From positions 1 to 34,565 of IMG/VR virus record IMGVR_UViG_2896595138_000002: DNA of 34,565 nucleotides; one strand, 5' to 3'. Position numbers and translations under genes: made by a program. Below, piece by piece: positions 12,857-34,565 of the stretch (position 1 is the first letter of the stretch; every line of letters begins with the position of its first letter). Origin of the DNA: a virus (lineage: Duplodnaviria > Heunggongvirae > Uroviricota > Caudoviricetes). A model generated the notes under the pieces. It saw only the letters and a program-made list of their open reading frames with translations, searched no databases and had not been told where the DNA came from.

Positions 12857-14121
12857 TCTTCTCCTCCTCTGTTGATTGTCGCAGTCCGGATTCAAATGCC
12901 GCAGCCGCCCAGGCGGGCGGTTTAAGACCGGCTGCACGGCGCTCCATCGTTTCACGGACCTGCTGGGCAAAAATTTCCTGATAGTCGTCACCGCGTTTTG
13001 CGCACTCTTTCTCGTAGGTACTCAGTCCGGCTTCTATCAGCATCACCGCTTCCTGTACTTCTTTCAGACCATCGATGGCCATACGACCGGAGCCTATCCA
13101 GTCACAGTTCCCCCAGGCGCTGCGGGCTTCCTGAAAGCTGAAACGCGCTTTTGAAGGTAACGTCACCACGCGGCGAACGATGGCCTCTTCCAGCCAGCAC
13201 AGAAACATCTGGCTCGCCTGACGGGATGCGACGAATTTTCGCCGCCCCATAAAGTACGCCCACGACTCGTTCGCACTGGCCCGTGCCGTGGAGTAGCTCA
13301 TCTGGGCGTAATTCCGGGAAAGCTGCTCATACGAGACACCCAGCCCGGCAGCGATATACCGCAACAGTGACTGCTCAAACACGGAGTAGCCGTTATCCGT
13401 GTCCTGAGCCGTCTGCAGGTTCAGTGAGTCCCCCGGCATCAGGTGCGGCACTTTTGCGCCTCCCAGACGGACCGGTGCTGCGGCGTAATACGCGGCAATT
13501 TCACCAATCCAGCCGGTCAGCTTGTCCCGCTGCTCCTTACTGTTCGCGCCCAGAATAAAATCCATCGCTGACTGCGTATCCAGCTCACTCTCAATGGTGG
13601 CGACATACATCGCCTTCACAATGGCGCTCTGCAGCTGCGTGTTCTGCAGTGTGTCGAGCATCTTCATCTGCTCCATCACGCTGTAAAACACATTTGCACC
13701 GCGGGTCTGCCCGTCCTCCACGGGTTCAAAAACGTGAATGAACGAGGCGCGCCCGCCGGGTAACTCACGGGGTATCCATGTCCATTTCTGCGGCATCCAG
13801 CCAGGATAGCCGTCCTCGCTGACGTAATATCCCAACGCCGCACCGCTGTCATTAATCTGCACACCGGCACGGCAGTTCCGGCTGTCGCCGGTATTGTTCG
13901 GGTTGCTGATGCGCTTCGGGCTGACCATCCGGAACTGTGTCCGGAACAGTCGCGAGGGACTGGTATCCCAGGTGGCCTGAACGAACAGTTCACCGTTAAA
14001 GGCGTGCATGGCCACACCTTCCCGAATCATCATGGTAAACGTGCGTTTCCGCTCAACGTCAATGCAGCAGCAGTCATCCTCGGCAAACTCTTTCCATGCC
14101 GCTTCAACCTCGCGGGAAAAA
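12837..14121 (-). pseudogene. B: Lambda B-like portal protein, 5'-truncated (about 105 N-terminal codons missing) by IS insertion
   Basis: ORF 12837..14165: gpB homology runs from ...FSREVEAAWKEFAEDDCCCIDVERKRTFTMMIREGVAMHAFNGELF... to ...EEEKSDSRAA; the first ~14 codons of the ORF are IS600-derived. Confidence 0.85.
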
Positions 14122-14941
14122 TTTCGCACGTATAAACATCTTTGATGCCAGCGAGGTACAACCATCCCTCCTGTGTGGCAACATACGTCAGGTCCGCCAC
14201 CCAGACCTGATTTGGTGCTGTAGGAGCGAACGTCTGGTTCAGCAGATTTGGCGCAACTGGCAGATTGTGGTTCGGGTTCGTAGTCGCTCTGAACTTGCGT
14301 TTCTGCTTACAGCGTAGCCTTAGCTCCTTACGAAGACGTGCCAGTCGGTCACGACCAACGATGATGCCATTCTCTGCCAGCTCCGTCTGGAGCCGCCGGG
14401 TTCCATATGTTTCGCGAGTGCGGATATGTGCCACCTTAATCTCCAGTTTTAGCCGCTCATCACTTTGTTTTCTGTCTGAGGGTTCATGCTGTACCCAGTT
14501 GTAATAACCGCTCCTGGATACACCAAATACCTGACACATCGCTTCAATGGGAAATTGTTGTCGCCATTGTTCGATTAACGCGTATTTTTCAGCGACTCCT
14601 GTGCAAAATACGCTGTTGCTTTTTTTAATATATCTCGCTCAAGGCGAGCTTCATTTAACGCCTTACGCAGTTGCAGAATTTCAGATTCCAGTTCAGCCAC
14701 CGTGCGGGAACCAGGAGTACCGAGCCCTTTTCTGGCGGCGGTAACCCATTGTCCTAAAGTGCCTTCAGGAAGGGATAATCGGGAAGCGCCTTCACTGATC
14801 GAAAGTTGATTTTCAAGAACCGTTCTGACAGCTTCGGCTTTGAACTCTTTAGAGTAACGTTGGGTTTTTCTGCTCATTATTAGCTCCTTCTGATGCCATT
14901 CTATTTCAGGAAGGAGTGTCCGTTAAACTCAGGCTACCTCA
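14122..14941 (-). mobile_element. IS600 (IS3 family), partial copy 1: left end + orfA + about 140 codons of orfB
   Basis: Left-end sequence TGAGGTAGCCTGAGTTTAACGGACACTCC (RC at 14919..14941); orfA at 14575..14877; identity to the other copies stops at 14122 where portal sequence begins. Confidence 0.85.
14575..14877 (-). CDS. IS600 OrfA (helix-turn-helix transposase subunit)
   Basis: 100-aa ORF MSRKTQRYSKEFKAEAVRTVLENQLSISEGASRLSLPEG...KKATAYFAQESLKNTR; A7 run at plus 14620..14626. Confidence 0.9.
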   Translation of the reverse strand: MSRKTQRYSKEFKAEAVRTVLENQLSISEGASRLSLPEGTLGQWVTAARKGLGTPGSRTVAELESEILQLRKALNEARLERDILKKATAYFAQESLKNTR

Positions 14942-15872
14942 GACTTTTGCTGGCCCGAAGACCAAATCCGAAGCGCCCGTTCTTTTCATCACGAAAGTTT
15001 TGCTCTATCTGCATTCGCCGACTGTATAACTTGATGATTTCTCGCGCTCTGAAGTCATTTGTACTGCTGAAGATCAACCAGGCTTCTTTTGCTGATTTGC
15101 TCTGTTCTTTGTCTGTTTTGTTTAAACCACTCTGACCTTTCGAACGTTTCTTTTTTCGCCCTTTTGCCGATTTCTTATAGGTGTAAAAATGCCCCCGGAT
15201 GCTTTTTTTCCTTTCTTTAACCAGCCTTCCAGCCCCCATATATTCCGGTGTTTTACATTCAGGGCTATCCGACACTTTTAACCATCTTTCAGGCGCGTTA
15301 TCGAGGCAATACTGAACGTTATTTCTGATCCGACCAATAAAATCCCAGCCCAGAGAAGTAATATGGTGAAACCATGCGCTCTGAAATCCAGCATCCGTGA
15401 CAATAATAACCCTGGCATCGGGGGGCAGGGATTGAGCAAGGGAATCAAGGAAATCATGTTGTATCAATGGATTATTTTGTTTTTCAGAAGGAACAACCTT
15501 ACTCAATAACGGAATGGAACGCCCGTCACACAGAAGGCTGGCACGAAGAACATGATGCTCCTGGGAGGGATAGCCACTCCAGTCTACGGCTATTACACAT
15601 AAAGATAACTGCCGTGTCAGCATTGAAGTGATATTCCTGAAAATCATTGGAATATCGCGATGGAGCGCCTCATTACCCATGAGGCGATCAATACGTTTGA
15701 TCTTATTCTTAACTTGTGCATTACCCGGCAAAAAACGTCCGATACTGGTCAGCGTCAGAGATGCTCCGTTGATTAACGCCACTGTGGCATCCATCAGGGC
15801 ATTTTGTCGGTACTGATGAAATGGTGCTAAGGCATCCCGGAAGAAATTCTGACATACTTTATGAACAGGCAT
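14942..15872 (-). pseudogene. IS10-like DDE transposase, C-terminal ~80 aa missing
   Basis: Homology ends at the IS600 junction, about 14941. Confidence 0.7.
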
Positions 15873-15954
15873 AGCAGTGATCTCATTGAATTGTTGGCAC
15901 AAATCAGTAGATCACATAATGCTATGTCTGTCTCGTTTTCTGGGGATTCCTCAG
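14942..15954 (-). mobile_element. IS4-family (IS10-like) element fragment, 3'-truncated by IS600 copy 1
   Basis: Transposase ORF 14934..15902 with IS10-like motifs (IKRIDRL, VDWS, LRAS, DAGF, KGRKKKRS, IYSKRMQIEQNFRD); terminus CTGAGGAATCCCC (RC) at about 15942..15954. Confidence 0.7.
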
Positions 15955-15982: not shown

Positions 15983-18084
<2,102 letters not shown>

Positions 18085-21023: not shown

Positions 21024-21083
21024 TATTATTACCTTTTGAAGAAGTTACCCTTAAGATTTCAAGGATTTTGACTCATGGAAGAG

Positions 21084-22348
21084 TGAGGTAGCCTGAGTTT
21101 AACGGACACTCCTTCCTGAAATAGAATGGCATCAGAAGGAGCTAATAATGAGCAGAAAAACCCAACGTTACTCTAAAGAGTTCAAAGCCGAAGCTGTCAG
21201 AACGGTTCTTGAAAATCAACTTTCGATCAGTGAAGGCGCTTCCCGATTATCCCTTCCTGAAGGCACTTTAGGACAATGGGTTACCGCCGCCAGAAAAGGG
21301 CTCGGTACTCCTGGTTCCCGCACGGTGGCTGAACTGGAATCTGAAATTCTGCAACTGCGTAAGGCGTTAAATGAAGCTCGCTTTGAGCGAGATATATTAA
21401 AAAAAAGCAACAGCGTATTTTGCACAGGAGTCGCTGAAAAATACGCGTTAATCGAACAATGGCGACAACAATTTCCCATTGAAGCGATGTGTCAGGTATT
21501 TGGTGTATCCAGGAGCGGTTATTACAACCGGGTACAGCATGAACCCTCAGACAGAAAACAAAGTGATGAGCGGCTAAAACTGGAGATTAAGGTGGCACAT
21601 ATCCGCACTCGCGAAACATATGGAACCCGGCGGCTCCAGACGGAGCTGGCAGAGAATGGCATCATCGTTGGTCGTGACCGACTGGCACGTCTTCGTAAGG
21701 AGCTAAGGCTACGCTGTAAGCAGAAACGCAAGTTCAGAGCGACTACGAACCCGAACCACAATCTGCCAGTTGCGCCAAATCTGCTGAACCAGACGTTCGC
21801 TCCTACAGCACCAAATCAGGTCTGGGTGGCGGACCTGACGTATGTTGCCACACAGGAGGGATGGTTGTACCTCGCTGGCATCAAAGATGTTTATACGTGC
21901 GAAATTGTCGGCTACGCCATGGGAGCGCGCATGACAAAAGAGCTGACAGGTAAAGCCCTGTTTATGGCGCTCAGGAGCCAGCGCCCACCTGCCGGGCTAA
22001 TCCACCACCCTGATCGAGGTTCACAGTACTGCGCATACGATTACCGGGTCATACAGGAGCAGTTTGGTCTGAAAACATCAATGTCGCGTAAAGGTAACTG
22101 TTACGACAACGCTCCGATGGAAAGCTTCTGGGGAACGCTGAAAAATGAGAGCCTGAGCCACTATCGTTTTAATAACCGGGATGAAGCCATCTCAGTAATA
22201 CGGGAATACATTGAGATTTTCTACAATCGTCAGCGTCGTCACTCTCGTCTGGGGAATATCTCCCCGGCAGCCTTCAGGGAAAAATATCATCAGATGGCTG
22301 CTTAAAAAAAGAACAAATGGTAGTGTCCGCTATTGCCAGTACACCTCA
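21084..22348 (+). mobile_element. IS600 copy 2, complete, flanked by 3-bp direct repeat GAG
   Basis: Ends TGAGGTAGCCTGAG... and ...GCCAGTACACCTCA; GAG at 21081..21083 and 22349..22351; 1265 bp. Confidence 0.9.
21148..22305 (+). CDS. IS600 transposase as a single fused OrfAB reading frame (385 aa)
   Basis: A8 run at 21399..21406 (A7 in copies 1 and 3) joins orfA to orfB in one frame: ...DILKKSNSVFCTGVAEKYALIEQWRQQFPIEAMCQVFGVSR...; DDE domain present. Confidence 0.85.
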   Translation: MSRKTQRYSKEFKAEAVRTVLENQLSISEGASRLSLPEGTLGQWVTAARKGLGTPGSRTVAELESEILQLRKALNEARFERDILKKSNSVFCTGVAEKYALIEQWRQQFPIEAMCQVFGVSRSGYYNRVQHEPSDRKQSDERLKLEIKVAHIRTRETYGTRRLQTELAENGIIVGRDRLARLRKELRLRCKQKRKFRATTNPNHNLPVAPNLLNQTFAPTAPNQVWVADLTYVATQEGWLYLAGIKDVYTCEIVGYAMGARMTKELTGKALFMALRSQRPPAGLIHHPDRGSQYCAYDYRVIQEQFGLKTSMSRKGNCYDNAPMESFWGTLKNESLSHYRFNNRDEAISVIREYIEIFYNRQRRHSRLGNISPAAFREKYHQMAA

Positions 22349-22407
22349 GAGTCCTTTTTATTTAAATTTCACATTCAGCGCTAAAAATAATCCGATTTAA
22401 TATTAAT

Positions 22408-25489: not shown

Positions 25490-26087
25490 AGAGTGGCGCT
25501 ATGTGCCATTGCATGGTGCCGGGTGCCTCCCGGTGAATTCAGTACCAGCACCTGAATCCGCGATTATCCCATATACCTACTCGCTGATTTCCCCTCCGCA
25601 CAGGGGGATTCACCATGCCAGTTTCTTTTAACAAACTCCCGCAAACCAGACAACAGTCAACCGCCTGAATTGTGAAGTATTTAAAAATTTCTCCCGCTAA
25701 CTGATACCCGGCTAACAGTCTGGCGTTTTCTTTTTCAGCAACGGGAAAGCAACAACCACCACACCCGCCACCAGCACACCGTCAGCCAGCACTGACATTA
25801 TCCGGCTGCTGCAATGCCATTCACAAAAACAGTAAGCAATCACTTTTTACCGTAACAGGTGATAATCCAGATATGTATCCTGAGGTGTACTGGCAATAGC
25901 GGACACTACCATTTGTTCTTTTTTTAAGCAGCCATCTGATGATATTTTTCCCTGAAGGCTGCCGGGGAGATATTCCCCAGACGAGAGTGACGACGCTGAC
26001 GATTGTAGAAAATCTCAATGTATTCCCGTATTACTGAGATGGCTTCATCCCGGTTATTAAAACGATAGTGGCTCAGGCTCTCATTTT

Positions 26088-26741
26088 TCAGCGTTCCCAG
26101 AAGCTTTCCATCGGAGCGTTGTCGTAACAGTTACCTTTACGCGACATTGATGTTTTCAGACCAAACTGCTCCTGTATGACCCGGTAATCGTATGCGCAGT
26201 ACTGTGAACCTCGATCAGAGTGGTGGATTAGCCCGGCAGGTGGGCGCTGGCTCCTGAGCGCCATAAACAGGGCTTTACCTGTCAGCTCTTTTGTCATGCG
26301 CTCTCCCATGGCGTAGCCGACAATTTCGCACGTATAAACATCTTTGATGCCAGCGAGGTACAACCATCCCTCCTGTGTGGCAACATACGTCAGGTCCGCC
26401 ACCCAGACCTGATTTGGTGCTGTAGGAGCGAACGTCTGGTTCAGCAGATTTGGCGCAACTGGCAGATTGTGGTTCGGGTTCGTAGTCGCTCTGAACTTGC
26501 GTTTCTGCTTACAGCGTAGCCTTAGCTCCTTACGAAGACGTGCCAGTCGGTCACGACCAACGATGATGCCATTCTCTGCCAGCTCCGTCTGGAGCCGCCG
26601 GGTTCCATATGTTTCGCGAGTGCGGATATGTGCCACCTTAATCTCCAGTTTTAGCCGCTCATCACTTTGTTTTCTGTCTGAGGGTTCATGCTGTACCCAG
26701 TTGTAATAACCGCTCCTGGATACACCAAATACCTGACACAT
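26088..26741 (-). CDS. IS600 OrfB (DDE integrase domain), 3' end frameshifted
   Basis: ORF ends ...ESFWER*, other copies read ...ESFWGTLKNESLSHYRF...; C-run 26089..26091 is 3 long. Confidence 0.8.
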   Translation of the reverse strand: MCQVFGVSRSGYYNWVQHEPSDRKQSDERLKLEIKVAHIRTRETYGTRRLQTELAENGIIVGRDRLARLRKELRLRCKQKRKFRATTNPNHNLPVAPNLLNQTFAPTAPNQVWVADLTYVATQEGWLYLAGIKDVYTCEIVGYAMGERMTKELTGKALFMALRSQRPPAGLIHHSDRGSQYCAYDYRVIQEQFGLKTSMSRKGNCYDNAPMESFWER

Positions 26742-26776
26742 CGCTTCAATGGGAAATTGTTGTCGCCATTGTTCGA

Positions 26777-27079
26777 TTAACGCGTATTTTTCAGCGACTC
26801 CTGTGCAAAATACGCTGTTGCTTTTTTTAATATATCTCGCTCAAGGCGAGCTTCATTTAACGCCTTACGCAGTTGCAGAATTTCAGATTCCAGTTCAGCC
26901 ACCGTGCGGGAACCAGGAGTACCGAGCCCTTTTCTGGCGGCGGTAACCCATTGTCCTAAAGTGCCTTCAGGAAGGGATAATCGGGAAGCGCCTTCACTGA
27001 TCGAAAGTTGATTTTCAGGAACCGTTCTGACAGCTTCGGCTTTGAACTCTTTAGAGTAACGTTGGGTTTTTCTGCTCAT
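26777..27079 (-). CDS. IS600 OrfA
   Basis: 100-aa ORF identical in pattern to copy 1 except L20P (RTVPENQ). Confidence 0.9.
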   Translation of the reverse strand: MSRKTQRYSKEFKAEAVRTVPENQLSISEGASRLSLPEGTLGQWVTAARKGLGTPGSRTVAELESEILQLRKALNEARLERDILKKATAYFAQESLKNTR

Positions 27080-27258
27080 TATTAGCTCCTTCTGATGCCA
27101 TTCTATTTCAGGAAGGAGTGTCCGTTAAACTCAGGCTACCTCAACAGGATGGACTTAGCAATGGCTGCTCCTGGCACAAAGCGGACAGTGATCACCGTTC
27201 TTACGACTACTTTCTGACTTCCTTCGTGACTTGCCCTAAGCATGTTGTAGTGCGATAC

Positions 27259-27282
27259 TTGTAATGACATTTGTAATTACAA
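27259..27282 (+). promoter_or_regulatory. relBE operator-like inverted repeats (TTGTAAT-N-ATTACAA) in the relB promoter region
   Basis: cTTGTAATgacatTTGTAATTACAAg 13 bp upstream of the relB start. Confidence 0.65.
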
Positions 27283-27294
27283 GAGGTGTAAGAC

Positions 27295-27534
27295 ATGGGT
27301 AGCATTAACCTGCGTATTGACGATGAACTTAAAGCGCGTTCTTACGCCGCGCTTGAAAAAATGGGTGTAACTCCTTCTGAAGCGCTTCGTCTCATGCTCG
27401 AGTATATCGCTGACAATGAACGCTTGCCGTTCAAACAGACACTCCTGAGTGATGAAGATGCTGAACTTGTGGAGATAGTGAAAGAACGGCTTCGTAATCC
27501 TAAGCCAGTACGTGTGACGCTGGATGAACTCTGA
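27295..27534 (+). CDS. relB: RelB antitoxin
   Basis: 79-aa ORF MGSINLRIDDELKARSYAALEKMGVTPSEALRLMLEYIADNERLPFKQTLLSDEDAELVEIVKERLRNPKPVRVTLDEL. Confidence 0.95.
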   Translation: MGSINLRIDDELKARSYAALEKMGVTPSEALRLMLEYIADNERLPFKQTLLSDEDAELVEIVKERLRNPKPVRVTLDEL

Positions 27535-27821
27535 TGGCGTATTTTCTGGATTTTGACGAGCGGGCACTAAAGGAATGGCGAAAGCTGGGCTCGACGGTAC
27601 GTGAACAGTTGAAAAAGAAGCTGGTTGAAGTACTTGAGTCACCCCGGATTGAAGCAAACAAGCTCCGTGGTATGCCTGATTGTTACAAGATTAAGCTCCG
27701 GTCTTCAGGCTATCGCCTTGTATACCAGGTTATAGACGAGAAAGTTGTCGTTTTCGTGATTTCTGTTGGGAAAAGAGAACGCTCGGAAGTATATAGCGAG
27801 GCGGTCAAACGCATTCTCTGA
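27534..27821 (+). CDS. relE: RelE mRNA interferase toxin
   Basis: 95-aa ORF MAYFLDFDERALKEWRKLGSTVREQLKKKLVEVLESPRIEANKLRGMPDCYKIKLRSSGYRLVYQVIDEKVVVFVISVGKRER...; ATGA overlap with relB. Confidence 0.95.
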   Translation: MAYFLDFDERALKEWRKLGSTVREQLKKKLVEVLESPRIEANKLRGMPDCYKIKLRSSGYRLVYQVIDEKVVVFVISVGKRERSEVYSEAVKRIL

Positions 27822-27892
27822 ACCAAAGCATGACATCTCTGTTTCGCACCGAAGGTGACACTTCTGCTTTGCGTTGACAGGAGAAGCAGGCT

Positions 27893-28048
27893 ATGAAGCA
27901 GCAAAAGGCGATGTTAATCGCCCTGATCGTCATCTGTTTAACCGTCATAGTGACGGCACTGGTAACGAGGAAAGACCTCTGCGAGGTACGAATCCGAACC
28001 GGCCAGACGGAGGTCGCTGTCTTCACAGCTTACGAACCTGAGGAGTAA
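27893..28048 (+). CDS. hokD: Hok-family type I toxin (HokD/RelF-like), 51 aa
   Basis: MKQQKAMLIALIVICLTVIVTALVTRKDLCEVRIRTGQTEVAVFTAYEPEE, translated directly from the sequence (below the ORF-track size cutoff). Confidence 0.85.
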   Translation: MKQQKAMLIALIVICLTVIVTALVTRKDLCEVRIRTGQTEVAVFTAYEPEE

Positions 28049-28116
28049 GAGACCCGGCGAGTGAGAAATCCCTCGCCACCTCTGATGTGGCAGGCATCCT
28101 CAACGCACCCGCACTT

Positions 28117-28147
28117 AACCCGCTTCGGCGGGTTTTTGTTTTTATTT
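28117..28147 (+). terminator. Rho-independent terminator after hokD
   Basis: AACCCGCttcgGCGGGTTTTTGTTTTTATTTT. Confidence 0.75.
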
Positions 28148-28265
28148 TCAACGCATTTGAAATTCTGGATGGTGCCGGAATAGAATCAAAAATACTTAAG
28201 TAGCGCGCAGGGATAAGAGGGATGGACCCCGAACAGGGGAGTGCTATTTATCTGGAAGGATTCTG

Positions 28266-28517
28266 ATGATGAACATCGAAGAACTGCGTAAAATTTTTTG
28301 TGAAGATGGCCTCTATGCTGTGTGCGTTGAAAATGGAAATATTGTTAGTCATTACCGCATTGTGTGTTTGCAAAAAAATGGGGCTGCGTTAATTAATTTT
28401 GTGGATGCCCGAGTGACGGACGGATTTATCTTGCGCGACGGTGAGTTTGTCACTTCATTACAGGCATTGAAAGAGATCGGAATAAAAGCTGGCTTTTCTG
28501 CTTTTTCAGAAGAATAA
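28266..28517 (+). CDS. rem: Small prophage protein of unknown function (Rem-like position and size)
   Basis: 83-aa ORF immediately downstream of relBE-hokD, as for rem in Qin; identity by position and length only. Confidence 0.5.
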   Translation: MMNIEELRKIFCEDGLYAVCVENGNIVSHYRIVCLQKNGAALINFVDARVTDGFILRDGEFVTSLQALKEIGIKAGFSAFSEE

Positions 28518-28582
28518 ACTCATCTACAATCTTGCGCGGGCTGAACTCCCGCTGAGTAACACCGTGCCACCGGAGAAAACCG

Positions 28583-28861
28583 ATGGCACGCAACGCAAAA
28601 TATTACAATCATGATAATTCGACCGTTCTTGCCCACACGCACGAGCGGTATTCTCACGCATTTAAGTCAGACTGGTACCAGCATCCCTCATGCACTGAAG
28701 AACAGGCCGAATGGCTCATTCAGTGTTACCGCAGGCGCGGATGCGAGGTTAAAAAAGCCCTTAGCCTCGACTACCGTCACTGGATAATCTCCGTCAGGCT
28801 CCCTTACTCCGAACAGCCACCGCGTCCGTCCCGCACATTCCAGCAACGGATCTGGAGGTAA
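28583..28861 (+). CDS. Hypothetical 92-aa protein, stop/start-coupled to the following gene
   Basis: ORF ends TAA 1 nt before the GTG start of the next gene; Cys/His-containing. Confidence 0.4.
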   Translation: MARNAKYYNHDNSTVLAHTHERYSHAFKSDWYQHPSCTEEQAEWLIQCYRRRGCEVKKALSLDYRHWIISVRLPYSEQPPRPSRTFQQRIWR

Positions 28862-28862
28862 C

Positions 28863-29912
28863 GTGCGGGTATTACTTCGACCTGTTCTGGTTCCGGAACT
28901 CGGGCTGGTGGTCCTTAAGCCCGGTCGTGAATCCATGCCGGTATTCCACAATACCCGGTTACTGGTGGAGCCGGAACCGAAAAGCATGCGTAATCTGCCG
29001 TCCGGGGTCGTTCCTGCCGCTCGCCAGCCGCTGGTGGAAGACAAAACATTGCTGCCGTTTTTCAGTAACGCACGGGTGATTCGTGCTGCTGGTGGTGCTG
29101 GTGCATTGTCTGACTGGCTGTTGCGCCATATTAAATCCTGCCAGTGGCCACACGGCGATTATCATCACAGCGAAACCGTCATTCACCGTTATGGTACCGG
29201 CGCAATGGTGTTGTGCTGGCACTGCGACAACCAGCTGCGTGACCAGACATCCGAATCACTCGAGCAACTTGCTCATCAAAACCTGTCAGCATGGATGATT
29301 GACGTCATCGGTCACGCAATAAGCGGTACGCAGGAGCGTGAACTATCTCTGGCTGAATTATCCTGGTGGGCGGTCCGCAATCAGGTGGCGGACGCGCTAC
29401 CGGAAGCGGTATTACGTCGTTCGCTGGGGTTGCGTGCGGAAAAAATCCGCTCAATGTTCCGTGAAAGCGACATCGTACCGGGAGAGCAGACCGCCACCAG
29501 CATACTGAAACAGCGCACAAAAAATCTTGCGCCGCTGCCTCACGCCCACCAGCAACAGAACCCACCACAGGAAAAGACGGTGGTCAGCATTGCCGTTGAT
29601 CCTGAGTCTCCGGAATCTTTCATGAAACGACCTAAACGTCGCCGCTGGGTTAACGAGAAATACAAACGCTGGGTGAAGACACAGCCGTGTGCGTGTTGTG
29701 GTAAGCCAGCCGACGATCCCCATCACCTGATTGGTCATGGTCAGGGCGGAATGGGGACAAAATCTCACGATATTTTCACGCTACCGCTGTGTCGGGAGCA
29801 TCACAACGAGCTTCATGCGGATCCTCTGGCGTTCGAAGAAAAGCATGGTTCTCAGGTTGATTTAATTTTTCGTTTTCTTGATCACGCCTTTGCAACTGGC
29901 GTGCTTGGGTAA
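28863..29912 (+). CDS. ydfU: DUF968-like protein with C-terminal HNH-type Cys/His motif (YdfU-like)
   Basis: 349-aa ORF; ...QPCACCGKPADDPHHLIGHGQGGMGTKSHDIFTLPLCREHHNELH...; sits between rem and rusA/Q. Confidence 0.6.
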   Translation: MRVLLRPVLVPELGLVVLKPGRESMPVFHNTRLLVEPEPKSMRNLPSGVVPAARQPLVEDKTLLPFFSNARVIRAAGGAGALSDWLLRHIKSCQWPHGDYHHSETVIHRYGTGAMVLCWHCDNQLRDQTSESLEQLAHQNLSAWMIDVIGHAISGTQERELSLAELSWWAVRNQVADALPEAVLRRSLGLRAEKIRSMFRESDIVPGEQTATSILKQRTKNLAPLPHAHQQQNPPQEKTVVSIAVDPESPESFMKRPKRRRWVNEKYKRWVKTQPCACCGKPADDPHHLIGHGQGGMGTKSHDIFTLPLCREHHNELHADPLAFEEKHGSQVDLIFRFLDHAFATGVLG

Positions 29913-29924
29913 AAGAGGTGACTG

Positions 29925-30282
29925 ATGCTCATAGATTTGGTTTTACCTTACCCGCCGACGGTGAACACTTACTGGCGACGCCGTGGCAGCACATATTTTA
30001 TCTCGGAGGAGGGAAAGCGTTATCGCCGGGCTGTGGCGCTTATTGTTCGCCAGCAGCGGCTGAAATTAAGCCTGTCCGGAAGGCTGGCGATAAAGGTGAT
30101 TGCAGAGCCACCGGATAAGCGTCGTCGCGACCTGCGACAATATCCTGAAAGCACCGCTGGATGCGCTGACGCATACGGGAGTGTTAATGGACGATGAGCA
30201 GTTTGATGAAATCAATATCGTTCGTGGTCAGCCAGTATCTGGTGGACGTCTGGGGGTGAAGATTTACCCCATAATGCATTAA
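29925..30282 (+). pseudogene. rusA: RusA-like Holliday junction resolvase, frameshifted
   Basis: ORF 29925..30197 (MLIDLVLPYPPTVNTYWRRRG...EPPDKRRRDL) then ORF 30100..30282 (...DNILKAPLDALTHTGVLMDDEQFDEINIVRGQPVSGGRLGVKIY) in the +1 frame; single-base insertion near 30121. Confidence 0.75.
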
Positions 30283-30296
30283 GAGCAGGTCAAAAA

Positions 30297-31118
30297 ATGA
30301 AACTGGAAGATTTACCGAAATACTACTCCCCAAAATCCCCTGGCCTGACCGATGCATCGGCCTCAACGTCAAAAGATGCGCTGAGTATCACTGATGTGAT
30401 GGCCGCGCAGGGCATGACACAGAATCGGGCTGAGATGGGTTTTTCTGCGTTCCTGGGGAAAATGGGCATCAGTATGAATGACAGGGCGCGGGCAACAGAA
30501 TTACTGGCAGATTATGCACTCAGTCGGTGCGATCGTGTGGCGGCGTTGAGAAAACTTCCGGCAGAAATAAAACCGGTAGTGATGCGCATTATGGCTTCGT
30601 ACGCTTTTGAGGATTATGCCCGCAGCGCAGCGAGTAAAAAGCAGTGCCCTTGTTGCTATGGGGAAAAATTTATTGAAAGCATAGTTTTTACAAACAAGGT
30701 CCAGTATCCGGATGGTAAGCCGCCGGTATGGGCAAAGTGTACGAAAGGTGTGTATCCGTCTTACTGGGAAGAATGGAAAAAAGTCAGGGAGGTGGTAAAA
30801 GTTGCCTGTCCGGAGTGTGGCGGAAAGGGTGAGGTTTCCACCGCCTGTAAGGATTGCCGTGGGCGTGGTGTCGCCATTCATCGTGAAGAGTCGGTAAAAC
30901 GTGGTATGCCTGTTATCAGAGACTGCCAGCGTTGTGGTGGTCGTGGCTATGAAAGACTACCATCAACGGAGGCATTTAATGCTATATGCGAGGTGACAAA
31001 CCAGATAACACGCGCGTCATGGGAAAAAACAGTTAAGAAATTTTATGATGCGCTGGTGACCCGGTTTGATATTGAAGAAGCATGGGCTGAGCGGCAGTTA
31101 AAAAAGGTAACTAGGTAA
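30297..31118 (+). CDS. Late-gene antiterminator Q-like protein with DnaJ-type CxxCxGxG zinc-finger repeats
   Basis: 273-aa ORF just upstream of a promoter/terminator pair and tRNAs; motifs CPECGGKG, CKDCRGRG, CQRCGGRG; placement after rusA typical of lambdoid Q. Confidence 0.6.
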   Translation: MKLEDLPKYYSPKSPGLTDASASTSKDALSITDVMAAQGMTQNRAEMGFSAFLGKMGISMNDRARATELLADYALSRCDRVAALRKLPAEIKPVVMRIMASYAFEDYARSAASKKQCPCCYGEKFIESIVFTNKVQYPDGKPPVWAKCTKGVYPSYWEEWKKVREVVKVACPECGGKGEVSTACKDCRGRGVAIHREESVKRGMPVIRDCQRCGGRGYERLPSTEAFNAICEVTNQITRASWEKTVKKFYDALVTRFDIEEAWAERQLKKVTR

Positions 31119-31131
31119 CAAGGTAACAAGG

Positions 31132-31159
31132 TTGATTTTTCCGGAATCTGTGGTAAATT
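31132..31159 (+). promoter_or_regulatory. Candidate late promoter (PR'-like): TTGATT-16 nt-TAAATT with TG extension
   Basis: Motif match 14 bp after the Q stop codon. Confidence 0.4.
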
Positions 31160-31208
31160 CGTCATAACGATGGGCGTTTTATGCCTGACGTTAGAAGAGT
31201 TTCTACAA

Positions 31209-31232
31209 CCCGCCGCTGAGCGGATTTTTTAT
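31209..31232 (+). terminator. Candidate tR'-like terminator (short GC stem + T-run)
   Basis: CCGCtgaGCGG then ATTTTTTATT. Confidence 0.35.
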
Positions 31233-31269
31233 TGCGAAATTAATTACGGACCGTTATTATTCTGCTCCC

Positions 31270-31345
31270 GGCCCTTTAGCTCAGTGGTGAGAGCGAGCGA
31301 CTCATAATCGCCAGGTCGCTGGTTCAAATCCAGCAAGGGCCACCA
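31270..31345 (+). tRNA. ileZ: tRNA with CAU anticodon (Ile2/ileZ-like, or Met)
   Basis: 76 nt GGCCCTTTAGCTCAGTGGTGAGAGCGAGCGACTCATAATCGCCAGGTCGCTGGTTCAAATCCAGCAAGGGCCACCA; cloverleaf folds with a 7-bp acceptor stem and encoded CCA. Confidence 0.85.
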
Positions 31346-31443
31346 TCACAAACCGGCATTAGCTTATCAGGAAGAGCAGACGACACGATAACAGGGTTGT
31401 TGGTGCGGGGCGGGTCCCGATGGCGGTCCATTATCGGTATTCA

Positions 31444-31520
31444 GCGTTGTTAGCTCAGCCGGACAGAGCAATTGCCTTCTAAGCAATCGGTCACTGGTTC
31501 GAATCCAGTACAGCGCGCCA
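31444..31520 (+). tRNA. argN: tRNA-Arg (anticodon UCU), argN/argU-like
   Basis: 77 nt GCGTTGTTAGCTCAGCCGGACAGAGCAATTGCCTTCTAAGCAATCGGTCACTGGTTCGAATCCAGTACAGCGCGCCA; anticodon loop CTTCTAA. Confidence 0.85.
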
Positions 31521-31630
31521 TATTCATTCTTCCAGATTCCTTCCGGCAGAGCCTTATACTGAAATATACTTGGCTCAGGATATTGTTGAAAATATTATAT
31601 GTTTGTCAAAAATAAAAGTTCTGTTAAGTA

Positions 31631-31984
31631 TTGATTGAGTATTTGTTATACGGTCTAATGGTTTTTTCAGCATTAAATATTTATCATTCATATGGTGCGG
31701 GTAGAGTGAATATTGATGAGGCGTCGGGGTGTTTCATCCTTAGGCAGCGTATTGATATAGTCAATGCAGCACGAGCAAAGGCCTTCAGCCGTTTGACAGT
31801 TTTGTTCTGTACTCCTGATCGTCTTTCGGGAAGAGACGTTATTATTCTGAATAGTGATGCTATACAGAGGGTTTGCGATGAGTTCATGGTTGCTAATTCA
31901 GAATTATTTGCTCTTGTTCAGGAGTACAACAGAATAGCCAGGACCTGTGGTATGGATGAACTTCGGATTACTCATCTGGGGTAG
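31631..31984 (+). CDS. Hypothetical protein (117 aa) in the Q/tRNA moron slot, probably 3'-truncated by IS600
   Basis: AT-rich ORF; its stop codon TAG ends 1 nt before the IS600 left end; no recognised family; first in-frame ATG at 31658. Confidence 0.35.
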   Translation: MIEYLLYGLMVFSALNIYHSYGAGRVNIDEASGCFILRQRIDIVNAARAKAFSRLTVLFCTPDRLSGRDVIILNSDAIQRVCDEFMVANSELFALVQEYNRIARTCGMDELRITHLG

Positions 31985-31985
31985 A

Positions 31986-33250
31986 TGAGGTAGCCTGAGT
32001 TTAACGGACACTCCTTCCTGAAATAGAATGGCATCAGAAGGAGCTAATAATGAGCAGAAAAACCCAACGTTACTCTAAAGAGTTCAAAGCCGAAGCTGTC
32101 AGAACGGTTCCTGAAAATCAACTTTCGATCAGTGAAGGCGCTTCCCGATTATCCCTTCCTGAAGGCACTTTAGGACAATGGGTTACCGCCGCCAGAAAAG
32201 GGCTCGGTACTCCTGGTTCCCGCACGGTGGCTGAACTGGAATCTGAAATTCTGCAACTGCGTAAGGCGTTAAATGAAGCTCGCTTTGAGCGAGATATATT
32301 AAAAAAAAGCAACAGCGTATTTTGCACAGGAGTCGCTGAAAAATACGCGTTAATCGAACAATGGCGACAACAATTTCCCATTGAAGCGATGTGTCAGGTA
32401 TTTGGTGTATCCAGGAGCGGTTATTACAACCGGGTACAGCATGAACCCTCAGACAGAAAACAAAGTGATGAGCGGCTAAAACTGGAGATTAAGGTGGCAC
32501 ATATCCGCACTCGCGAAACATATGGAACCCGGCGGCTCCAGACGGAGCTGGCAGAGAATGGCATCATCGTTGGTCGTGACCGACTGGCACGTCTTCGTAA
32601 GGAGCTAAGGCTACGCTGTAAGCAGAAACGCAAGTTCAGAGCGACTACGAACCCGAACCACAATCTGCCAGTTGCGCCAAATCTGCTGAACCAGACGTTC
32701 GCTCCTACAGCACCAAATCAGGTCTGGGTGGCGGACCTGACGTATGTTGCCACACAGGAGGGATGGTTGTACCTCGCTGGCATCAAAGATGTTTATACGT
32801 GCGAAATTGTCGGCTACGCCATGGGAGAGCGCATGACAAAAGAGCTGACAGGTAAAGCCCTGTTTATGGCGCTCAGGAGCCAGCGCCCACCTGCCGGGCT
32901 AATCCACCACTCTGATCGAGGTTCACAGTACTGCGCATACGATTACCGGGTCATACAGGAGCAGTTTGGTCTGAAAACATTAATGTCGCGTAAAGGTAAC
33001 TGTTACGACAACGCTCCGATGGAAAGCTTCTGGGGAACGCTGAAAAATGAGAGCCTGAGCCACTATCGTTTTAATAACCGGGATGAAGCCATCTCAGTAA
33101 TACGGGAATACATTGAGATTTTCTACAATCGTCAGCGTCGTCACTCTCGTCTGGGGAATATCTCCCCGGCAGCCTTCAGGGAAAAATATCATCAGATGGC
33201 TGCTTAAAAAAAGAACAAATGGTAGTGTCCGCTATTGCCAGTACACCTCA
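31986..33250 (+). mobile_element. IS600 copy 4, complete, no target-site duplication
   Basis: Both termini present; flanks AGA / TCA differ; 1265 bp. Confidence 0.9.
32050..33207 (+). CDS. IS600 fused OrfAB transposase (385 aa)
   Basis: A8 run at 32301..32308, as in copy 2. Confidence 0.85.
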   Translation: MSRKTQRYSKEFKAEAVRTVPENQLSISEGASRLSLPEGTLGQWVTAARKGLGTPGSRTVAELESEILQLRKALNEARFERDILKKSNSVFCTGVAEKYALIEQWRQQFPIEAMCQVFGVSRSGYYNRVQHEPSDRKQSDERLKLEIKVAHIRTRETYGTRRLQTELAENGIIVGRDRLARLRKELRLRCKQKRKFRATTNPNHNLPVAPNLLNQTFAPTAPNQVWVADLTYVATQEGWLYLAGIKDVYTCEIVGYAMGERMTKELTGKALFMALRSQRPPAGLIHHSDRGSQYCAYDYRVIQEQFGLKTLMSRKGNCYDNAPMESFWGTLKNESLSHYRFNNRDEAISVIREYIEIFYNRQRRHSRLGNISPAAFREKYHQMAA

Positions 33251-33531
33251 TCATGCTGTACAGTATCTGGTTTTTGTCGTTCTCCCCCAGTTCAAACCAG
33301 GTCACCACACCTTTCACCCGCCGCTGTACGTCATCGCCCTGCCATACCGTCAGGTATGGCCATTTTGTCCAGCACCTGCGCAAATTCAAGGGAAAGAAAC
33401 TGCTGACTGACCAGAGAAAGGTCGAGGGAAAAAAGTGAAGAGAGTGACTGGGTGAGATGAAAGGAAACCACCGCAAAAGCATCCGGTGGCAGGCCGTCCA
33501 CTTCCAGTGTGAAACGTAATCCGGTTGACAT
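33251..33531 (-). pseudogene. vgrG: VgrG (type VI secretion spike) N-terminal fragment, frameshifted and truncated by IS600
   Basis: MSTGLRFTLEVDGLPPDAFAVVSFHLTQSLSSLFSLDLSLVSQQFLSLEFAQVLDKMA then YLTVWQGDDVQRRVKGVVTWFELGENDKNQILYSM in the other frame; GGAGG SD before ATG at 33531; homology stops at the IS600 boundary. Confidence 0.7.
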
Positions 33532-34565
33532 AGCAACCTCCGTGAAAATGAATAATAATCCGCACATATTGCATGTACAACATGTCGGGCGGATGAGATA
33601 AGCGAGTCGACATCTGGCGTTACCGGGGAATATCAGAAAAATGTCATGGTTATGTGATGATTTAGTCTGGGATTTTACTTCAGAGAAACGGGTGTCTGTT
33701 TAGTCAACAAAATAATCACAAACGCAACGGATGGGTTCTCGACGTTATTCACGACAGGCTCGTACATTACAGCGAGTAATAAAAAACCTGATATGCAAAG
33801 TCAAACCAATATTCATAATGTCTTTTTATTCACAACAATAAATAATTCAATAACAATCATTGAAATGAATGATGGTTTGTATAAGGAATATACGCTACCG
33901 CCCCACTCTGATAACATGATCTGCACATTGCCATCTTAACGTCGTTAAACACTGGCTTAATAGTGGATATTTCAAATTAGGAATTTATTAAATTCACCTG
34001 ATGAATATAATAAGCAAATAGCATAGAAAATAATGACAACTCCCTCCGAGAGGACCATTTCCAAAGCACTGCACCACCACCTGGTGCCCGGATGATCTTG
34101 CTTCAGTGGTAAGAGTACCTGATTCATTGTTCCCAAAATGGTGTTTTCCCCTGCCCCTCCAATAATGTGTAGCTCTCACTTGATAATCTATTGATTAGGT
34201 TATATTAAGAATCAATATTTAAAATACATCCATTTCCTTGAATAAATCAACATGTTTATTTATCAATTGCTGTTTTAGCTCTGACTCATCAAGCTCTCCA
34301 TATTTGTACTACAGATAATCGCGAATAAATACAGAGAACGCCATTTATCCTTTTAGCATACCTGCCGGATATTTTTATTTGTATTAATATTAATTGCATC
34401 TCCAAGTCCGAGCATATCCATCATTAAAAACATTTTGAGATTATAGAATACCTGTGATAACAAGAGAAACATCTGCACAATGTGAATAGTTAGTTTCTTT
34501 TCAGAGGAAATGAAATAGACAAGCTGAATGAAAGGGAGAGTGATATAAATTAAAAAACATAACAT

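Follow-up and report, generated by a model that had tools for sequence, protein, structure and literature searches.

A one-base insertion in the frameshift run of IS600 is predicted to hard-wire OrfAB in an inherited sub-lineage of a Shigella boydii-type chromosome

Four copies of IS600 (c1 to c4) lie among Qin-type lambdoid prophage genes, of the kind carried on E. coli and Shigella chromosomes, in the window, by which we mean the whole 34,565-nucleotide stretch of DNA that was analyzed. The explanation that we prefer, and that taken as a whole we consider likely, is that one extra A in an A7 run hard-wires the OrfAB transposase of c2 and c4 at the level of sequence, that this A8 allele is real, inherited, carried on one haplotype and present at several loci, and that c2 and c4 are members of an IS600 sub-lineage in a Shigella boydii-type chromosome (CP026845.1). 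Genome decay in Shigella is driven by the expansion of insertion sequences (ISs), five of which, IS600 among them, have expanded in all Shigella species (PMC7373316); little is understood of what determines how fast such expansions proceed. In the IS3 family, transposase is throttled mainly by the efficiency of frameshifting, and the A8 copies appear to have lost that throttle through a natural one-base insertion.

Results and discussion

Four IS600 copies with two layouts

IS600, a member of the IS3 group of the IS3 family, is canonically 1264 bp long and is found in Shigella and E. coli. The copies in the window (Table 1) share with it ~99% nucleotide identity (99.0-99.3% to RefSeq loci annotated as "IS3-like element IS600 family transposase"), the 3-bp target duplication (at c2), OrfA and OrfB, the DDE domains and the ends, which in all full copies were located as imperfect terminal inverted repeats (5'-TG...CA-3') reading TGAGGTAGCCTGAG... 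and ...CCAGTACACCTCA. Ten aligned IS600 copies show 0-9 differences. In the fused protein, HTH_Tnp_1, HTH_21, rve, rve_2 and rve_3 all score above their Pfam cut-offs, and the catalytic residues D229, D289 and E325 are invariant in an alignment of relatives. Whereas c1 and c3 have the canonical A7 run and the two-ORF (0/-1) frameshift layout, c2 and c4 are 1265 bp long and have A8, a single ORF resulting from it, the substitutions L79F and W128R, and private substitutions in the catalytic core. IS600 is defined by sequence, and by sequence the A8 copies are still IS600 despite their lack of a two-ORF layout. A weak sigma-70-like site inside the left end of c2 is at most suggestive of an indigenous promoter, matching the consensus at 9 of 12 positions, no higher than shuffle expectation in the same consensus scan.

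Table 1. Positions in the window of the IS600 copies, their parts and the one-base deletions of the source assembly.
Feature	Position	Strand	Basis
IS600 copy c1, A7, intact 100-aa OrfA, ends after IS position 822 (822 bp)	14120-14941	-	alignment
c1 A7 run	14620-14626	-	sequence; orthologue also A7
IS600 copy c2, full length, 1265 bp, A8 allele	21084-22348	+	ends located; alignment; 99% identity to annotated IS600
GAG target duplication of c2, left and right copies	21081-21083; 22349-22351		flanks and empty sites
Candidate indigenous promoter of c2, sigma-70-like, TTAACG-17-TAGAAT	21099-21127	+	consensus scan
c2 uninterrupted OrfAB ORF, 385 aa	21148-22305	+	ORF list; translation; Pfam
c2 haplotype markers, C>T (OrfA L79F) and T>C (W128R)	21382; 21529	+	variable-site table
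c2 A8 run	21399-21406	+	sequence; same in orthologous copy
Stem-loop, 9-bp stem, kept in A8 copies	21413-21446	+	RNA fold
c2 private substitutions, A>C (E260A) and T>C (S288P)	21926; 22009	+	variable-site table
IS600 copy c3, A7, 100-aa OrfA	25881-27143	-	alignment; translation
c3 A7 run	26822-26828	-	sequence; orthologue also A7
IS600 copy c4, full length, 1265 bp, A8	31986-33250	+	alignment; ends; flanks
c4 uninterrupted OrfAB ORF, 385 aa	32050-33207	+	ORF list; translation
c4 haplotype markers, L79F and W128R	32284; 32431	+	
c4 A8 run	32301-32308	+	sequence; same in L045 orthologue
c4 private substitution, C>T (S311L)	32981	+	variable-site table
One-base deletions in the source, mostly 4>3 or 5>4 G/C runs	16871; 18820; 21048; 25486; 25641; 26099; 28541; 31411; 31416		

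Both exact 385-residue proteins are public on one contig only, CP026845.1 (GCA_002950375.1, 4.93 Mb), and related proteins on this contig carry the name Shigella boydii from their depositors. The junction of c2 was matched by no genome in the E. coli complete-genome set.

The extra A encodes the transframe junction

A sequence-only reading of the window had described A7 with a 100-residue OrfA in c1 and c3 and A8 with a 385-residue ORF in c2 and c4, and had proposed that the continuous ORF mimics the product of frameshifting; the sequence is as described, and the comparison with the frameshift product extends to an identical junction, LKK|SNS. In the orfA frame, the A7 copies read TTA AAA AAA GCA and thus contain the heptamer A_AAA_AAA, on which a -1 slip yields L-K-K-S-N-S. 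The A8 DNA encodes L-K-K-S-N-S directly, and the junction of its ORF, ...DILKK|SNSVF..., is the exact -1 transframe product of the A7 copies. A8 places orfB in frame with orfA, and ordinary decoding from the orfA start would therefore give OrfAB without frameshifting.

The surrounding signal supports A7 as a slippery site in IS600. A_AA.A_AA.A is one of the two commonest heptamers in the IS3 family (PMC4066793). Beginning 6 nt 3' of the A-run is a stem-loop with a predicted folding energy of -14 kcal/mol (z = -1.67), likely a frameshift stimulator on the basis of this fold, and its spacing conforms to the 4-10 nt rule for hairpins in the family (PMC4066793). The searchable literature yielded no description of the IS600 A8 allele or its strains, or of frameshifting in IS600.

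Long A-runs between the DNA-binding and catalytic frames are also a feature of IS elements that use transcriptional slippage at A9 or T9 runs (Baranov et al. 2005, PMC1088944), which are recognized by an A/T run of at least 9 (8 in some organisms) and by ORFs that need an mRNA indel (PMC1088944). Those elements require slippage on the mRNA to join their frames, whereas the run in c2 and c4 is one of 8 and their frames are continuous in the DNA itself, such that slippage would separate them.

At the protein level, we used DILKK versus DIFKK as a marker of A8 versus A7 (in database proteins P0003-P0014 and others). An ORF that is truly A8 reads DILKK (DILKKSNS). Slippage-joined IS600 products of A7 copies are annotated with DIFKK (F84, DIFKKSNS), which is encoded by no DNA and, as judged from the sequences, is an artefact of where the annotation places the join; older annotations of A7 copies give KKH, KKN or KKG at the junction. 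Pipelines give A7 slippage joins and true A8 ORFs the same product name, and A8 is invisible unless the junction is inspected.

A8 is found at orthologous loci in a second strain

The assembly of a different S. boydii strain (GCA_031665755.1, locus L045; the sister) shares its gene order and all four insertions with the window. At c2 and c4 its orthologous copies have A8 with both marker SNPs, and at c1 and c3 they have A7, such that all four loci match. The sequence-only reading had allowed that A8 could be a homopolymer overcall, the true c2 and c4 being ordinary A7 copies of IS600. This worry was reasonable, given that the assembly from which the window comes (the source) does contain errors: comparison with the sister over 20 kb revealed nine one-base indels, and comparison with Illumina-based contigs of the same lineage over ~7.7 kb revealed three differences, at which the contigs side with the sister (three of the nine sites). 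Every one of these discrepancies, however, is a deletion in a G/C run of the source (that at 21048 being a single C lost after a G run) rather than an insertion in an A-run, and neither comparison revealed any discrepancy in an A/T run. At c2 and c4, where an overcall would have predicted A7 in the sister, it reads A8 at both loci; A8 is, moreover, perfectly linked to two flanking SNPs, and true A8 proteins of the same haplotype have been deposited from several other genomes. We therefore regard an overcall as highly improbable, even allowing that the A8 singletons of E. coli described below could be assembly errors. Because an independent assembly has A8 at both orthologues and the errors of the source are confined to G/C-run deletions, the A8 runs of c2 and c4 are, on the comparison of these assemblies, real and inherited at orthologous loci.

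The G/C-run deletions do affect other features of the record, in which pseudogene calls need caution. Owing to the deletion at 16871, the terminase large subunit (641 residues in the sister) is read as two products of 421 and 230 residues. We considered c3 to be a decayed copy with a broken orfB, which is probably wrong: the apparent frameshift coincides with a G3 at about 26096-26098 that is a G4 in the sister orthologue, and because this G4>G3 change, the deletion at 26099, fits the error type of the source, the frameshift is probably an assembly error.

A8 arose on a haplotype that still exists as A7

Among the ten aligned copies, the changes at IS positions 299 (C>T, L79F) and 446 (T>C, W128R) are found only in c2 and c4. 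Database proteins contain both markers in other combinations. R128 is a widespread sub-family state that occurs with A7, as a separately called 272-residue OrfB, on 30 contigs; F79 occurs with A7 in P0046 (a separate OrfA-F79 protein, on two contigs) and in P0064; and the full F79/R128 haplotype occurs with A7 in P0064 alone, on one contig. The same haplotype with A8, but lacking the changes private to c2 and c4, is represented by P0063 on six contigs and by P0183 (other S. boydii genomes), the latter encoded at three loci in the sister genome and also on the source contig outside the window. As read from these sequences, the background on which A8 arose is a single IS600 haplotype (L79F, W128R), and A7 forms of it persist. 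We rejected the idea that L79F and W128R were acquired after A8 to compensate for it, as both occur with A7 and F79 is natural in a relative.

There are at least four A8 loci in the sister genome (MDS1503231, 292, 308 and 345) and at least three in the source (c2, c4 and the P0183 copy outside the window), both counts being lower bounds. The four sister accession numbers span ~115 genes, and the spacing between 292 and 308 matches the distance in genes between c2 and c4, suggesting, as judged solely from accession numbering, that the A8 loci are clustered.

Elsewhere, A8 is rare. Among full-length sites matched by a 68-bp probe around the run, A8 was present in 3 of ~1,330 E. coli records and in 3 of ~262 plasmids, and the remainder are A7. 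The E. coli A8 copies are mutually identical and each has a target duplication, but for every one of them related strains have an orthologous A7 copy in the same place; these comparisons indicate that A8 is there an in-situ singleton each time, whether through recent slippage mutation or through error. We therefore rejected them as proof of transposition by A8 elements. More independent cases were seen in two S. flexneri pINV copies and in one chromosomal copy, and A7>A8 has arisen independently on at least four IS600 haplotypes. Among the cases found, A8 is inherited and multi-copy only in the S. boydii lineage.

Recurrent origins of A8, its appearance in E. coli in situ at pre-existing A7 copies, and the description of long A/T runs as hypermutable (PMC1088944; PMC4066793) are what would be expected of a reversible switch, in which A7 and A8 interconvert by replication slippage and thereby toggle between low-level and constitutive transposase, providing mutational on/off control of transposition bursts. 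We consider such a switch quite improbable, since the state of the A-run is stable at four loci across two strains, A8 accounts for well under 1% of sites, and sequencing errors may account for some of the E. coli singletons.

Insertion, recombination and conversion at the four loci

The c2 site is empty in five genomes (L016, L017, L019, L020 and L021), which read CATGGAAGAGTCCTTTTT with a single GAG, bearing out the sequence-only reading of an intact GAG duplication at c2. That reading had taken the duplication to suggest a recent insertion, which is not so. The sister strain has this insertion too, within the same flanking sequence and likewise with A8, and in further isolates short-read contigs stop at the right end of c2. 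Because the insertion is shared with the sister and the contigs of other isolates break at the same IS end, c2 predates the divergence of these strains.

Neither c3 nor c4 has a target duplication. The left flank of c4 and the right flank of c3 are contiguous in intact prophages (...GGGGTAGA|TACATATC..., with AGA/GGA at the junction), indicating that recombination between IS600 copies in inverted orientation produced c3 and c4 as a reciprocal pair. The relB-relE-hok-rem-ydfU-rusA-Q block that they bound (25881-33250) is inverted relative to the lysis genes, with the same arrangement in the sister, and the sequence points to recombination between inverted IS600 copies as the origin of this relB-Q inversion. 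On its right, c4 is flanked (33251-34565) by the N-terminus of vgrG, comprising its first ~66 codons, and then by the yncG/ansP/yncE/yncD neighbourhood; other genomes have an intact VgrG-Rhs locus at the corresponding place. The vgrG flank implies that a junction through IS600 now links the Qin prophage to a distant part of the chromosome.

The Q antiterminator and the 66-residue vgrG fragment are widespread, and the truncated RusA of this region matched only short-read relatives. This RusA is truncated to 90 residues at 29925-30197 (118-120 residues in other prophages), and because the identical 90-residue protein is present in the Logan short-read assemblies ERR200279, ERR200280 and SRR18964995, the truncation is real and a marker of the lineage.

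Although their A-runs agree between the two strains, c1 and c3 differ at the W128R marker (IS position 446; 14496 in c1 and 26698 in c3), where the source has T (W) and L045 has C (R) in both copies. This pattern suggests that, since the two strains diverged, gene conversion has taken place among IS600 copies.

Predicted consequences of the fusion

Fusion of orfA and orfB by one base is a classic laboratory manipulation of IS3 family elements. IS911 with one base inserted in its frameshift region produces OrfAB alone, its amino-acid sequence unchanged (PMC2909936); in IS2, conversion of A6G to A7G makes the fused transposase the main product, at a high level (PMC3219604); and in ISSau2, OrfAB was made by the same kind of insertion (A6G to A6G2), with OrfA and OrfB inhibiting transposition (PMC5771124). 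The level of frameshifting sets the level of transposition, and the transposase acts ~200-fold better in cis (PMC5009743). As in these constructs, a one-base insertion in A8 IS600 fuses the frames and leaves the OrfAB sequence unchanged; unlike them, it is natural, inherited and multi-copy and has its own, predicted weak promoter, whereas the constructs usually have strong ones. In sequence, then, A8 IS600 is a natural, inherited, multi-copy counterpart of the engineered mutation.

By analogy with the engineered elements, an A8 copy is expected to raise transposase; increased transposase, circle formation or transposition after fusion are known only from engineered IS911, IS2, IS3 and ISSau2. 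The sequence-only reading had put forward constitutive production of transposase, which for c2 and c4 is an overstatement, as these two copies may be disabled (see below). Standard decoding from its own weak promoter would yield OrfAB as the main product, and the copy would make more cis-acting transposase and no OrfA or OrfB of its own. Because the frameshift signal is kept in the A8 copies, a minority -1 slip on A8 could produce a 96-residue OrfA-like protein with a new tail ending in KQQRILHRSR. The sequence-only reading had proposed that the OrfA regulator is removed, which would apply in cis but not in trans: the 100-residue OrfA is still encoded by c1 and c3 and by other A7 copies, among them A7 copies of the same haplotype in the sister genome.

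Fate of the A8 copies

Three private substitutions distinguish c2 and c4, a number too small for any statistical claim of selection, and two of these affect invariant residues of the catalytic core. S288P of c2 adjoins the catalytic D289, at a position where S or T is invariant in relatives down to 60% identity, and S311L of c4 lies within the SMSRKGNCYDN block that precedes E325, S311 being invariant over the same range of relatives. The third, E260A of c2, introduces a residue that is natural in some relatives. E260A, S288P and S311L are all absent from the orthologous c2 copy (L045), and S288P and S311L are absent from the ancestral A8 forms P0063 and P0183. These substitutions suggest that c2 and c4 may be attenuated or disabled as sources of transposase, and the two copies are probably weakened or dead descendants of a fused element and not active hyper-transposers.

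The spread of A8 to several neighboring loci is consistent with transposition by the fused element, without proving it. A different possibility, which we consider rather unlikely, is that A8 is real but functionally inert, such that the copies are decaying relics that reached several loci by gene conversion or recombination or were mobilized by the transposase of other copies. Neither A8 copy in the window shows recent activity, c2 being old, stable and fixed across strains, and c4, like c3, being a product of homologous recombination between IS600 copies; conversion between nearby copies could have carried A8 to several loci, and the strain difference of c1 and c3 at marker 446 suggests that such conversion occurs; the core residues altered by S288P and S311L are otherwise invariant; and the A8 copies of E. 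coli give no sign of ever having spread. Set against these points, no damaging change sets the ancestral forms P0063 and P0183 apart from the A7 copies of their haplotype, A8 occupies at least four loci in one genome whereas A7 with the full haplotype is found on one contig (P0064), with two more for P0046, and engineered fusions are active in three other IS3 family elements.

A second fused relative of IS600 also bears on the inert reading. In a 1247-bp IS600-like element of E. coli, a 17-nt deletion (ATATTAAA[AAAAGCAACAGCGTATT]TTGCAC) fuses orfA and orfB into a 379-residue ORF (e.g., P0102 and P0006). This element is present at a Lip_A_acyltrans | IS | BCCT locus (L038-L042) in many NCBI, ENA and Logan assemblies, with short-read support. 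It resembles A8 IS600 in being a natural orfA-orfB fusion; it differs in that its deletion takes out the slippery run together with half of the stem and in that it occupies one fixed locus in all places examined and is thus a fossil. We therefore rejected the 379-residue ORFs as an active fused sub-family, and their confinement to a single locus speaks for the inert reading.

Within our preferred explanation, in which A8 is a real and inherited allele that hard-wires OrfAB, a more specific scenario can be drawn that we think doubtful. The A8 copies would be remnants of a self-amplifying "master" IS600, in which slippage hard-wired OrfAB and cis-acting transposase seeded nearby copies (the four loci across ~115 genes in the sister), and whose copies are now being silenced by missense changes in the catalytic core (S288P and S311L). 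Were this so, the window would be a natural snapshot of how a one-base change at a frameshift site could start, and end, an IS burst in Shigella. More generally, fused copies would be candidate drivers of local IS bursts if they are active, and if they are tolerated only after mutation of the catalytic core, they show how a conflict between host and element is resolved.

IS-associated damage near c1

The cut-off of c1 at IS position 822 is a feature absent from the sequence-only reading. The cut end abuts the phage portal gene, and a gene encoding a DDE_Tnp_1 (IS4-type) transposase lies directly beside the left end of c1; across 14030-15902, IS-mediated damage is clustered in the head genes of the prophage.
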